A DNA stretch of 64,000 bases from Escherichia phage vB_EcoM_Kelasse: sequence record MW749001.1; one strand, 5' to 3'. The position numbers and the translations under genes were made by a program. This document shows, one piece after another, positions 19,810 through 23,862 of the stretch. Positions within the stretch are counted from its first letter, which is position 1. Every line of letters starts with the position of its first letter. The notes under the pieces were generated by a model. It did not search any database. It worked only from the letters and a program-made list of their open reading frames with translations, and was not told the DNA's origin.

Positions 19810-20022
19810 TCATTTTTGTCCTGTATTTACTTTATGCCGATGTACGGCCTTAACTTTATCAAGGTATTTTTCAAAATTTCGCAATCTAGTATAGTCTGCC
19901 GGAGATTGGTTGAGTGATACTTCTCGACGCAAAGCTGAAATAACATTTCCAACTTCCCTACGAATTTCATCTAATTGAAGAACAGTAAGATTGCGAAGTT
20001 GCTTTTCAGTTAATTGTAGCAT
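19810..20022 (-). CDS. hypothetical protein (70 aa)
   Basis: ORF between tk and rI; TATAAATA late-promoter box just upstream. Confidence 0.45.
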
Positions 20023-20047
20023 ATATACCCCTTTAGTTAGATAAACC

Positions 20048-20055
20048 TATTTATA
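20048..20055 (-). promoter_or_regulatory. late promoter TATAAATA upstream of rI.1/rI
   Basis: Minus-strand TATAAATA about 26 nt upstream of the ATG at 20022. Confidence 0.5.
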
Positions 20056-20064
20056 ACTTTTGCA

Positions 20065-20646
20065 CTAACCGAGCTTTTTAGTTAATTCATTCCAATGTTT
20101 TCTACACAAAGAAACATAAATTTCATCACCAATACAGATTTGATTACCTTCTTTAACTGGTGTTCCATCTTCCATTAATCGAGCTGTCATAATCGCTTTT
20201 TTGCCACAATGACAAACTGCTTTTAGTTCAATAAGTTTATCAGCAATCGCTAAAAGTTCTTTAGAACCTTCAAATAATTTTCCGGCGAAATCAGTCCTTA
20301 ATCCATAAGCCATAACAGGAACATTATATGTATCAACAATTCGACTCAATTGATGCACTTGTTCAGTTTTTAAAAACTGAGCTTCATCTACAAATACACA
20401 ATGAATATCTTTTTGTGCTTCAGCCCATTTATAGAACTCGAAAATATCCATATCATCTGTAATAATATTCGCTTCCTGTTTAATTCCAATGCGAGAAACG
20501 ACTTCACAGACAGAATCGCGAGTATCAATAGCAGGCTTAAGAACTAATACACCCATTCCGCGTTCTTTATAATTATGCGCAGCAGTCAAAAGAGAAGCAG
20601 ATTTTCCAGCATTCATTGCTGCATAAGTAAAAATTAAACTCGCCAT
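20065..20646 (-). CDS. tk: thymidine kinase
   Basis: 193-aa ORF with P-loop AMNAGKS and C-terminal CHCG...C zinc motif typical of type II thymidine kinases; matches T4 Tk. Confidence 0.95.
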   Translation of the reverse strand: MASLIFTYAAMNAGKSASLLTAAHNYKERGMGVLVLKPAIDTRDSVCEVVSRIGIKQEANIITDDMDIFEFYKWAEAQKDIHCVFVDEAQFLKTEQVHQLSRIVDTYNVPVMAYGLRTDFAGKLFEGSKELLAIADKLIELKAVCHCGKKAIMTARLMEDGTPVKEGNQICIGDEIYVSLCRKHWNELTKKLG

Positions 20647-20655
20647 ATCACCTTC

Positions 20656-20841
20656 TTAAAGCGTATTCACATAAGCTATTAATTCATTTTCTTTCTTATC
20701 AAACCGATCAGCAAATTCTTCCTGCTGTTCAGGAGATAGCGGGCCGTATTCATCATAAAAGGTGTTTGCTTCTGTATGCTCATCTAGAAGTTCATGGATA
20801 AGCTCAAACAATTTATCTTTTTGTTCTTTGCTTAGGCTCAC
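20656..20841 (-). CDS. hypothetical acidic protein (61 aa)
   Basis: ORF. Confidence 0.4.
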   Translation of the reverse strand: MSLSKEQKDKLFELIHELLDEHTEANTFYDEYGPLSPEQQEEFADRFDKKENELIAYVNTL

Positions 20842-21010
20842 AGTATGTCAATCCCCAAAAGTTTTAAAATGACTCGTTTCTGATTCATAACCGCTACGAT
20901 TGAATGACCGTTGGGGTCTTTTTGACCTGATCCAATTATAAATCCTTTTTGCGTAGAAAGTTTAATCAAAACATCAAGTTCACGTAATAATTGATATTTT
21001 AAATCATCAT

Positions 21011-21238
21011 TCATTTTGGTTTACCTTCTTTAACGAAATCAGGATAAGGATAAAATCCTGAATAAAATCCTTCACCTTTATGATTGATGCATCCTTTATT
21101 AGAACAATAGCACCAATAATCGAAATCACAAGCCATTTCATCGTTGCATAAAGCAAAAACAACCGGCCACTTACACTTTTCACAGTGGGCATTTTTAAGA
21201 ATACTAGTTTGGCTCATAACCATGTAACCTTTAAGCAA
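21011..21238 (-). CDS. cysteine-rich small protein (75 aa)
   Basis: 12 Cys/His in 75 aa (CEKCKW...CNDEMACDFDYWCYCSNKGCINH); preferred over the overlapping 21007..21192 frame. Confidence 0.4.
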   Translation of the reverse strand: MLKGYMVMSQTSILKNAHCEKCKWPVVFALCNDEMACDFDYWCYCSNKGCINHKGEGFYSGFYPYPDFVKEGKPK

Positions 21239-21426
21239 TATTCTTCTACATGTTGTTTACGACCTTTCTTATCAATAAAGGTATATTCAACGAATGTCCC
21301 AATGTAGTCTTTATCTACATCATGTGGACTATTAATTGGACATTTAGTACGGCAAATGCGTTCCCATTGACGAATAATTACTGCTTTGTTTTTAGGATCA
21401 AACGGATGTGGGTAATGCACTTTCAT
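21214..21426 (-). CDS. hypothetical protein (70 aa)
   Basis: ORF. Confidence 0.4.
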   Translation of the reverse strand: MKVHYPHPFDPKNKAVIIRQWERICRTKCPINSPHDVDKDYIGTFVEYTFIDKKGRKQHVEEYCLKVTWL

Positions 21427-21877
21427 AATCCACCACTATTAAATCAATATCAGGAGTAAACATGTCGATTAATTTAGAAACCTTATCCCAATCGCCGCCA
21501 GCAATACCACAACCTATGCGTGGAATGTAAATTACCGGTTTAAACAAAAGGGTTTCTGCCTGTAGATTTAATTCTATCATGCAGTTTACTAAAGCACCAT
21601 AATCAAGATTAGGACCTGGTTCGTATTGCGTATACAGGTTATAGCATATACCAAATCCCGTAGGACTATGTTTAAAAACAATAGACATATCGCCTAATTT
21701 ATCGCGAGAACCGTACTCAGTAGTGGTTTTATCTATTTCTAAAATTTTGGGATAGGCTCTGGCTAATTGACCCGCTACACCTGAACCCATAGTATGAAAA
21801 CAATTGCACCCGTGCGCAATAATATTACCTTGAAGAAATAGGGCGACAATATCGCCCTTGATATATTTTACAATCAT
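21398..21877 (-). CDS. macro-domain-like protein (ADP-ribose binding/processing fold)
   Basis: N-terminal GDIV...IAHGCNC...GSGVAGQLA and later RIGCGIAGGDW resemble macro-domain nucleotide-binding motifs. Confidence 0.55.
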   Translation of the reverse strand: MIVKYIKGDIVALFLQGNIIAHGCNCFHTMGSGVAGQLARAYPKILEIDKTTTEYGSRDKLGDMSIVFKHSPTGFGICYNLYTQYEPGPNLDYGALVNCMIELNLQAETLLFKPVIYIPRIGCGIAGGDWDKVSKLIDMFTPDIDLIVVDYESALPTSV

Positions 21878-22215
21878 CTAGTACTCAATCCTCGATTATA
21901 AGAATCTACCAAACGGTCAACCATTGAATGACAAGCGGCTTTATCTTTTTCCTCCGCAACTGAACATTCTAAGGTATTCCACTTTTTAGCATATCGTTTT
22001 AACAATGTATCATTTTTGTATCTGCTTGATTTATCTCTTTCTCCGTCTTTATATGCATATATTAATTTCTGTGCAAATTCAGCTTGGCATGCTTTATTTT
22101 TCCCGCAATAATCCGCTGCAGTACGGTTTACATACTCTCTAATTTCAGTATATGATGTATCTGCTAACGCAGAAAATGAAATTAATCCTATACATAAAAC
22201 CAAAATTTTAGTCAT
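21874..22215 (-). CDS. secreted small protein (113 aa)
   Basis: Cleavable signal peptide MTKILVLCIGLISFSALA; at the position of T4 vs. Confidence 0.5.
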   Translation of the reverse strand: MTKILVLCIGLISFSALADTSYTEIREYVNRTAADYCGKNKACQAEFAQKLIYAYKDGERDKSSRYKNDTLLKRYAKKWNTLECSVAEEKDKAACHSMVDRLVDSYNRGLSTR

Positions 22216-22753
22216 TTACTATTTCCAAAAGTTTATTATTTTTAAGGTAATTAGCCTTTTCTAGGACTTCAGAAGCATATTTAGAACCTGCTTTAACATT
22301 CCATCCCGAATTATAAGAGGATATTGCTTTTCTTATATCGCCCTTATGTATATTTAACCAATAAGAAAGTTCAATGTACGCCCAGGAAGCTGAATTGGAC
22401 CGTTTATTCAACATTCTTTTTATTTCAGCATCGGTCATATTATAACCAAGTTCCTTAACTCTTGCTCGCATAGTAGGCAAATAATTTTGGAACATTCCGT
22501 AGGCGTGATGCTTTGGTTTAGATTTTAAATTAACTCCGCCAGAGCTTTCTTGCCATAAAATAGCAGCCATTATATGACCTAATCCGCTCTTGTGGATATT
22601 TTTGTGTGTTTTATATTTTCCATCCTTAGAAAATTGTTCCCCGAATTGATACGCGTAACGCATGTTATCGAGTTGGACATTACTGAAAGTATGCTCGGAG
22701 CTATGCGCCATCATTGAAATGGCCAATAGACCAGCGAGTAGTGCTTTTCTCAT
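22208..22753 (-). CDS. secreted lytic-transglycosylase (SLT)-like protein
   Basis: Signal peptide plus SLT-like ES...GMFQ motif (ILWQESSGG...AYGMFQ). Confidence 0.6.
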   Translation of the reverse strand: MRKALLAGLLAISMMAHSSEHTFSNVQLDNMRYAYQFGEQFSKDGKYKTHKNIHKSGLGHIMAAILWQESSGGVNLKSKPKHHAYGMFQNYLPTMRARVKELGYNMTDAEIKRMLNKRSNSASWAYIELSYWLNIHKGDIRKAISSYNSGWNVKAGSKYASEVLEKANYLKNNKLLEIVND

Positions 22754-22760
22754 GCTTACC

Positions 22761-23222
22761 TCATTGAGTTTTAATTACTGCTTTAGAAGCCTTTCCTGGT
22801 AAACGACGACTGTTAATAATTGCCATCCTACATTGAAGTGACGGGTCTTTGAACTTCGCATTAGGTTTACAAACTGTAAATCCAAGCCAAAGATTTCCAT
22901 CTGTGATTTCTAAACGTCCAGGACGGTATTCAACCCCATCAATAAAATCCTCGTCAATGTCAGGACGCGGAGGCATACTCAGGAATTCATTAACTTCTAA
23001 AACATGGTCTTTTATTTTGTGGAATAATTCAAAAACATATGTCTCATCAATCTCCCGTTGAATTGCACGATCAAGAAGATGCTGAGAATATTTTAGATGA
23101 AACGATGAGACCCCTGCTGCTTTTGATGCCTCACGAATCTCATTGTTAATTTGACGAAACTCCGACTCAAAGTGACGACGAAGCTTATTTCGACGGATAA
23201 AAACTTCTGTGTTGATAGTCAT
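22761..23222 (-). CDS. regB: RegB site-specific endoribonuclease
   Basis: 153-aa ORF at the T4 regB position; size and sequence consistent with T4 RegB. Confidence 0.85.
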   Translation of the reverse strand: MTINTEVFIRRNKLRRHFESEFRQINNEIREASKAAGVSSFHLKYSQHLLDRAIQREIDETYVFELFHKIKDHVLEVNEFLSMPPRPDIDEDFIDGVEYRPGRLEITDGNLWLGFTVCKPNAKFKDPSLQCRMAIINSRRLPGKASKAVIKTQ

Positions 23223-23247
23223 GTTATTCTCCTCTTAACTGATAGAA

Positions 23248-23280
23248 AAATTATACCACAGTCAAGAGGAAAAGTAAACA
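23248..23280 (-). promoter_or_regulatory. T4-type early promoter upstream of regB
   Basis: Minus-strand GTTTAC, 17-bp spacer, GGTATAAT. Confidence 0.6.
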
Positions 23281-23281
23281 G

Positions 23282-23560
23282 TTATTCTTTAAATCTAATC
23301 AATTTATTCATAGACTTTGAAACTTCTGCACGAACCTCATGTAGGTTTTTAAGCTGTTCAAGACGCTGCTCATAGTAAGCAATTTCATCTTCTTCGAGAC
23401 AGTCCTGCGAATCTTCTTTAAGATAACGTGCATAGTCCTGGAAAGCTTTACGGACTACTTCCTGGAAGTCATCAAGACTTTGAATTTTCTTAGGAGCAAC
23501 AGATACACGACGAGGGGCAGTATAATACTCATAACCAAACCCTGCGCTTAATTGAGCCAT
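23282..23560 (-). CDS. hypothetical protein (about 92 aa)
   Basis: ORF track frame 23282..23602; start placed at internal Met giving TAATG coupling with upstream gene. Confidence 0.45.
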
Positions 23561-23862
23561 TAATATTTTTCCTCTGGTTGGAACACAGCACGACAAGCCC
23601 ACATACTGGCTTCTTTGAGTTTCGTTTTAGCAATAGTTAACTGATCGAGGCTTTCAGCATAATTCTTCGCGAATTCACAGTCTTCACAATTATCTAGTGC
23701 TTCCCAGAATTCATCGTATAAAGCGTCAAAGATAAGTCCTAAACGAACTTCAGCGTCTTTAATAGCATTCACTTTACCTATTTTCTCTTCAGTATGTGGT
23801 TTATAACCCTTAATATCTTCAATCATATTTGACTTCCTCACCAGTACATAAATCATATTCAA
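23560..23862 (-). CDS. hypothetical small helical protein (89-100 aa)
   Basis: ORF; second/third gene downstream of denV-side array, region where T4 encodes vs.4 (Acb2); not verified. Confidence 0.45.

Follow-up and report, generated by a model that had tools for sequence, protein, structure and literature searches.

A divergent tk.4 (adfM) allele in a T4-like phage encodes a stand-alone macrodomain protein with glutamine at the position of the DarG/TARG1 catalytic lysine

The window, by which we mean the whole 64,000-nt stretch of DNA that was analysed, comes from a Tequatrovirus. The ORF described here lies on its minus strand in a run of genes with the order regB, vs.1, vs, the tk.4 ORF, tk.3, three small ORFs, tk, rI.1 and rI. 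The gene order is the same as in T4, where the slot between vs and tk.3 is occupied by tk.4 (NP_049723), annotated as 'phosphatase; contains A1pp phosphatase motif'; other GenBank labels for relatives of this gene are 'Macro domain protein' and 'Poa1p-like family protein'. A sequence-only reading of the locus had pointed to a macro-domain-like ORF at 21398-21877, recognized by the motifs GDIV, HGCNC, GSGVAGQLA and GCGIAGG and placed downstream of tk. We confirmed the ORF, found all four motifs in it and identified it as the orthologue of T4 tk.4. The phrase 'downstream of tk' holds in window coordinates only, since tk.4 and tk share the minus strand and tk.4 is therefore transcribed before tk. 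The boundaries of the gene in the window are:

21398-21877, minus strand: tk.4/adfM orthologue, an ATG-to-stop ORF encoding a stand-alone macrodomain protein of 159 aa
21874-21877, minus strand: ATGA, in which the stop codon of vs overlaps the start codon of tk.4 (read from the sequence)
21398-21426, minus strand: 3' end of tk.4 overlapping the start of tk.3 by 29 nt, compared with 4 nt in T4 (from the ORF coordinates)

The ATGA overlap suggests translational coupling between vs and tk.4, and inspection of the sequence placed a GAGGA approximately 10 nt 5' of the tk.4 start. Plus-strand ORFs overlapping tk.4 (21250-21459 and others) were set aside, since they are short and the conservation of the region is explained by the minus-strand protein. 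A promoter and terminator scan of positions 19900-23700 returned 11 promoter-like sites, compared with 14.4 expected from shuffled sequence, and so showed no excess. The best sigma-70-like site (23250-23278, minus strand) combines TTTACT and TATAAT at a spacing of 17 nt with an extended -10 TG; located immediately upstream of regB, it could, judging from its sequence, drive the regB-to-tk gene run. Within codons 7-13 of tk.4 we noted an 8-bp GC-rich hairpin, AGGGCGATATTGTCGCCCT, followed by a T-rich run (21840-21858, minus strand). The hairpin is the same in T4 and falls in the 5' part of tk.4 that stayed conserved while the remainder of the gene diverged; some GenBank records (fPS-90, ECML-123-2) carry a 'terminator' feature under the tk.4 match. 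The vs.1 homologue (22208-22753, minus strand), 100% identical to T4 Vs.1, which is a hypothetical protein in the T4 annotation, showed a match to the SLT lytic transglycosylase domain that was barely over the Pfam cut-off, and its N-terminus contains a hydrophobic stretch that by eye resembles a signal peptide.

At the DNA level the tk.4 ORF matched Shigella phage Sf24 with 100% identity and the other records among the top 25 listed, all of them T4-like, with 98-99.8%, and the 5.5 kb around tk.4 showed 98-99% identity to the best-matching Tequatrovirus genomes. In comparison with T4, DNA identity was 97-100% up to the tk.4 start and 78-88% over the first ~130 nt of the gene; it then dropped further in the gene body and was back to 97-98% within tk.3. 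The dip corresponds to the following feature:

21400-21750, no strand: divergent allele cassette, the tk.4 body with 40-72% DNA identity to T4 (pairwise DNA alignment, sliding window)

The same pattern was seen in the proteins. Window Tk.4 and T4 Tk.4 are 58% identical over 155/155 residues with no gaps, and the identities of the neighbouring proteins to their T4 counterparts are 96% for tk.3, 97% for vs, 100% for vs.1, 99% for regB and 99% for tk. So sharp a divergence of tk.4 between conserved flanks indicates that the gene body was exchanged by recombination. The window allele is common, about as frequent as the T4 type, and no oddity: a window-type Tk.4 (at least 95% protein identity) was found in 272 phage records and a T4-type Tk.4 (at least 95% protein identity to T4 Tk.4) in 221; for 159 records the identity to T4 Tk.4 was 80-90%. 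Among the matches listed, the nearest protein outside the window allele class was that of phage IME08 (75%). A second swapped cassette relative to T4 was observed at 20650-21210, in the tk.1/tk.2 interval, with 10-45% DNA identity and flanks of at least 97%. This interval contains three small minus-strand ORFs (20656-20841, 20838-21014 and 21011-21238), compared with two in T4. One encodes a DUF7438 protein (52% identical to T4 Tk.2). Another, of 58 aa, gave no Pfam match, and the third codes for a Cys-rich 'Phage zinc binding domain' protein of 75 aa (PF23895), for which T4 has no counterpart in this position.

The tk.4 protein belongs to the TARG1/ALC1-like macrodomains. The family proposed by the sequence-only reading was recovered both by sequence and by fold. 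Pfam Macro (PF01661) matched the protein with E=1.3e-7 and 32 bits (gathering cut-off 22) over profile positions 2-117 of 118, and PHROG 335 ('phosphatase') matched it with E=1e-71. Sequence searches against the PDB gave BT1257 (3e-10), Poa1p (1.6e-9), SCO6735 (1.1e-7) and M. tuberculosis DarG (4.8e-5), and also human TARG1. When a profile built from 40 homologues was used, the matches to solved macrodomains were strengthened to E-values of 1e-19 to 3e-9, with the TARG1 profile at 1.5e-17. The AlphaFold2 model, built on the alignment of the same 40 homologues (pLDDT 93.8, pTM 0.89), has the three-layer alpha/beta macro fold, and its best Foldseek matches were TARG1, BT1257, Poa1p and DarG, with TM scores of 0.7-0.8. 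Both structure and profile placed the protein closer to TARG1, DarG, SCO6735, BT1257 and Poa1p than to MacroD, PARG or the viral X-domain. Using tblastn we detected relatives of the tk.4 protein in 2,789 of 50,697 phage records, which agrees with a published survey where a macro domain was encoded by 41% of myoviruses (PMC9503650).

The alignment of the 40 homologues, which consists of phage and metagenome sequences, contains 16 invariant positions: G8, H22, G23, N25, C26, G33, A35, D49, G62, N80, Y82, Q84, P119, G122, G124 and W130. Besides GDIV (residues 8-11, 21845-21856, minus strand), the motifs that carry them are:

21800-21814, minus strand: HGCNC, residues 22-26; H22, G23, N25 and C26 invariant in the 40 homologues
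21761-21787, minus strand: GSGVAGQLA, residues 31-39, first glycine-rich loop and start of helix 1; G33 and A35 invariant
21626-21640, minus strand: NLYTQ, residues 80-84; N80, Y82 and Q84 invariant in the 40 homologues
21488-21523, minus strand: second glycine-rich loop, PRIGCGIAGGDW, residues 119-130; P119, G122, G124 and W130 invariant

N25 is the conserved macrodomain Asn and aligns with N22 of DarG, N23 of PhiKZ AdfM and N27 of SCO6735, and H22 aligns with H23 of Poa1p and H24 of SCO6735. G31 was invariant in all eight families of our multiple alignment, helix 1 spans residues 33-41 in the AlphaFold2 model, and the GSGVAGQLA loop is one that we take to be diphosphate-binding, by macrodomain precedent. 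GCGIAGG corresponds to residues 122-128, inside the second glycine-rich loop, and this loop is near-identical to PRIGCGLAGGTW of SCO6735 and PRIGCGLAGGKW of BT1257; the TARG1 loop is PRIGCGLDRLQW. An ADP-ribose-binding or -hydrolysing domain had been proposed from the motifs, and the residues of the ADP-ribose site are in place: N25 and the two glycine-rich loops are conserved without exception in the family, and the whole ADP-ribose-cleft set (N25, G31/G33, G122/G124/G127/G128) is invariant or nearly so.

The difference lies at the catalytic position, where the Lys of DarG (K80) and TARG1 (K84) is replaced in the tk.4 protein by Q84, the equivalent of Gln85 in SCO6735. The placement of Q84 came from an HMM alignment to TARG1 and BT1257, from an hhalign comparison with the DarG profile and from the multiple alignment. 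Its equivalence with SCO6735 Q85 was set via BT1257, whose NMIGQ aligns with N81-Q85 of SCO6735; a half-protein PDB query aligned SCO6735 over the C-terminal loop only. Window N80 aligns with SCO6735 N81, and A126 stands at the site of the TARG1 catalytic D125 in the HMM alignment. Both the SCO6735/BT1257-type Gln at the Lys80/Lys84 position and the positioning Asn are therefore present in the window protein. Judged from these alignments, the Tk.4 family combines a Gln-type active site with a loop of DarG/TARG1 length.

Relatives of Tk.4 are also encoded by bacteria. A scan of one genome per species gave at least 442 loci that encode relatives, in Rhodobacterales, Desulfobacterales, Planctomycetota and other groups, with 34-44% identity among the 80 loci kept, and the TQ motif was retained in 71 of the 74 bacterial homologues recovered. 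When the two ORFs closest to the gene on either side were clustered over the 80 loci, no neighbour proved to be widely conserved and no toxin or DarT-like partner emerged. The largest neighbour cluster, with 6 loci, was explained by lineage-specific synteny, with RpoC-like and IleRS-like ORFs (by eye) among the neighbours. The one relevant-looking neighbour was a NADAR gene (Pfam 1.5e-37): in three loci, from a Victivallales MAG and two Ruegeria, the Tk.4-like gene comes directly after it, either overlapping it or within 8 bp. NADAR is a family of erasers of guanine-linked ADP-ribose, and these loci pair both known DNA-base ADP-ribose eraser families with no toxin nearby. Five other loci, all from Rhodobacterales, contain, directly downstream of the macro gene, an ORF of ~400 aa whose start is no more than 25 bp away from the end of that gene; in 3 of the 5 the two overlap by a few bases. 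Given the NADAR pairing and the lack of a toxin-like partner, the Tk.4 family looks like a stand-alone eraser and not a captured antitoxin; since no DarT linkage was seen in the 80 loci, the ancestral role of the family need not be DarT reversal.

The macrodomain annotation of tk.4 and the anti-DarTG2 role of the T4 gene are already known. T4 without adfA and adfN remains DarTG2-resistant, and a further factor was predicted (PMC11825919). In a transposon-sequencing screen on a DarTG2-expressing host T4 tk.4 was the sole significant hit, and a clean tk.4 knockout was DarTG2-sensitive; the gene was renamed adfM (anti-DarT factor macrodomain), and the authors inferred that its product removes ADP-ribose from DNA (bioRxiv 10.1101/2025.11.20.689424). 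The suggestion of the sequence-only reading that a phage macro domain could erase defence marks thus agrees with the screen and the knockout of the T4 orthologue. The other possibility it had raised, reversal by the tk.4 protein of the marks made by the phage's own Alt, ModA and ModB, has no support.

We consider it likely, with a probability of roughly 0.65, that the window protein is an AdfM orthologue that hydrolyses DarT2-made thymidine-ADP-ribose on phage ssDNA by a Gln/Asn water route. The protein would bind the ADP-ribose put by the host toxin DarT2 on thymidine in single-stranded phage DNA and would then hydrolyse the N-glycosidic bond, with release of free ADP-ribose; a replicable template would be restored and the DarTG2 defence cancelled. 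Catalysis would resemble that of SCO6735, in which case Q84, held by N25, would position the distal ribose while water does the chemistry. By analogy with that enzyme, Tk.4 probably uses this route and not the lysine route of DarG and TARG1. The DarTG2 phenotype belongs to the T4 allele only, and the thymidine-ADP-ribose chemistry of a Gln-type enzyme to SCO6735 only; from these we infer catalysis by Tk.4 proteins and, by orthology, that the window allele, at 58% identity, does the job of T4 Tk.4.

The allele exchange leads to a more speculative reading, which we put forward tentatively and regard as rather doubtful. According to it, tk.4 would be a recombining anti-defence cassette, and the swapped alleles would differ in the DarT2 variants or base-linked adducts that they neutralise, all by a Gln-based mechanism. 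Three or more allele classes, with protein divergence from ~15% to 42%, may be swapped, within sharply conserved flanks, between near-identical T4-type genomes, and the adducts separated by the alleles might be thymine in DNA and uracil in RNA. The lysine-free, Gln-based mechanism assumed here would be new among viruses.

We regard it as improbable that the main substrates are ADP-ribosylated RNA or protein, whether uracil-linked RNA, Glu/Asp-linked defence or toxin marks, or the Alt/ModA/ModB marks. The idea draws on the closest characterised enzymes, SCO6735 and TARG1, which are multi-substrate, and on the three ADP-ribosyltransferases encoded by T4. However, Alt, ModA and ModB modify arginine, and to our knowledge arginine-linked ADP-ribose is not cleaved by TARG1-class macrodomains. 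No phenotype ties tk.4 to the Alt/ModA/ModB marks, whereas the DarTG2 phenotype is direct, and activities on RNA or protein could exist alongside DNA reversal without taking its place.

Neutralisation of DarT2 without hydrolysis of the adduct, either by binding and inhibition of the toxin or by shielding of ADP-ribosylated DNA as a reader, would be a different way to the same phenotype. SCO6735 Q85A, although catalytically dead, remains an inhibitor of DarT in vitro, and a stronger one than DarG K80A or TARG1 K84A (PMC9411070). The catalytic Lys of DarG is absent from the window protein, and the exchange of divergent tk.4 bodies among phages that are otherwise identical might fit a surface that tracks a variable toxin. 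Nevertheless, N25, N80, Y82, Q84 and both glycine-rich loops are invariant in the 40 phage and metagenome homologues, and bacterial homologues without a DarT partner conserve the same active-site residues, a pattern that speaks for selection on catalysis or on ligand binding and not on a toxin interface. Since, in addition, the protein of only 159 aa lacks a counterpart to the domain with which DarG binds DarT at its C-terminus, we judge this explanation very unlikely. Equally hard to credit is the processing of small ADP-ribose metabolites, by an ADP-ribose-1''-phosphate phosphatase or O-acetyl-ADP-ribose deacetylase like yeast Poa1p, as the GenBank label 'phosphatase' would imply, or the degradation of ADP-ribose-derived immune signals, since DarTG2 sensitivity is the only phenotype known for the T4 orthologue, that label was carried over from the name of a motif, no evidence ties Tk.4 to Appr-1''-p, and we know of no ADP-ribose-1''-phosphate source tied to T4 biology.

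The additions to the known picture are the divergent allele and the Gln in place of the catalytic lysine of DarG and TARG1. The discovery value is small: hundreds of phage genomes already carry a macro-domain or phosphatase annotation for tk.4, and a lysine-free active site and allele-cassette behaviour would not surprise a specialist. If the T-even AdfM, which is without the catalytic lysine and matches the Gln-type SCO6735, works as its residues suggest, the name AdfM spans two mechanistically different lineages. The swapped tk.4 alleles constitute natural variants for the specificity of DNA de-ADP-ribosylation, and their exchange bears on the prediction of DarTG2 escape by therapeutic T4-like phages.

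Of the known systems, DarG is the one from which the window protein can be separated most directly. DarG activity requires K80, and the catalytic dyad of TARG1 is K84/D125 (PMC8120803). The FPTK lysine K80 of DarG (T. aquaticus, PDB 5M31/5M3E; M. tuberculosis, PDB 5M3I) is Gln in the window protein. With the PADLOC DarG model the window protein scored 27 bits, T4 Tk.4 36 bits and PhiKZ gp104 133 bits, and with the NCBIfam DarG model NF048014 the window protein scored 27.6 bits, compared with a cut-off of 250, over profile positions 2-138 of 338. The Gln at K80 and these low DarG scores place the window protein outside the DarG family. DarG has a C-terminal DarT-binding domain that is absent from the 159-aa window protein, and it is encoded beside darT, whereas the neighbours of tk.4 in the window are vs and tk.3. 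A DarG-derived orphan antitoxin, as in PhiKZ gp104, was considered as an identity for the window protein and ruled out by the Gln at Lys80, the low DarG scores and the lack of a second domain.

PhiKZ gp104, also called AdfM, strips DarT2-made ADP-ribose from an oligonucleotide in vitro, and its N23A variant has lower activity (PMC13309987). It carries a lysine, K78, where the window protein has Gln, and shows ~22% identity to the family of the window protein. The name AdfM was given independently twice, to gp104, with Lys and a biochemical assay, and to T4 Tk.4, with Gln and genetic evidence. By their sequences the two proteins belong to different lineages.

SCO6735 (S. coelicolor; PDB 5E3B) and BT1257 (PDB 2AFC/2FG1) are Gln-type ALC1/TARG1-like proteins with 26-27% identity to the window protein. 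SCO6735 cleaves thymidine-linked ADP-ribose on ssDNA and rescues E. coli from DarT; its Q85A variant is inactive, N27S has reduced activity, and in the proposed mechanism water does the chemistry and the Gln positions the distal ribose (PMC9411070). A missing Lys as an argument against DNA hydrolase activity is overturned by this Gln-type enzyme (PMC9411070). SCO6735 is also active on protein ADP-ribosylation (PMC9411070), and both it and TARG1 are active on uracil-ADPr RNA (PMC13036486). The residues that position DNA in SCO6735 are not kept in the window protein, in which S32 takes the place of K34 and G23 that of Val25. SCO6735 has an extended mobile loop after the Gln, with K89 and K94 for DNA clamping. 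The corresponding loop of the window protein, Q84 to Y93, is shorter by 5 residues, as in DarG and TARG1, and contains no Lys. Its NLYTQ has the Thr found in DarG and TARG1, whereas the SCO6735/BT1257 type is NMIGQ.

TARG1/OARD1 (PDB 4J5S) resembles the window protein in size, in fold (TM 0.73-0.84), in the PRIGCG loop and in the Thr before the catalytic position, and differs in the catalytic dyad, K84/D125 being replaced by Q84/A126. Yeast Poa1p (PDB 6LFQ), an ADP-ribose-1''-phosphate phosphatase, shares the H-x-C-N-C motif and the overall fold, and it is from Poa1p that GenBank records have their labels 'phosphatase' and 'Poa1p-like'; the C-terminal half matches weakly. When the residues of the deposited Poa1p mutants were followed, H23 was conserved as H22, S30 was conservatively replaced by T29, and F152 aligned with A126.

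T4 Tk.4 itself lies in the same slot between vs and tk.3, with 155 aa compared with 159 in the window protein, and the first 14 residues are identical, as are all the family-invariant residues. The two proteins differ in 42% of residues, the second glycine-rich loop reads GAGIGKG in T4 and GCGIAGG in the window, and the window protein extends 4 residues further at its C-terminus. With 42% of its residues different from those of T4 Tk.4, the window allele could also differ from it in specificity.
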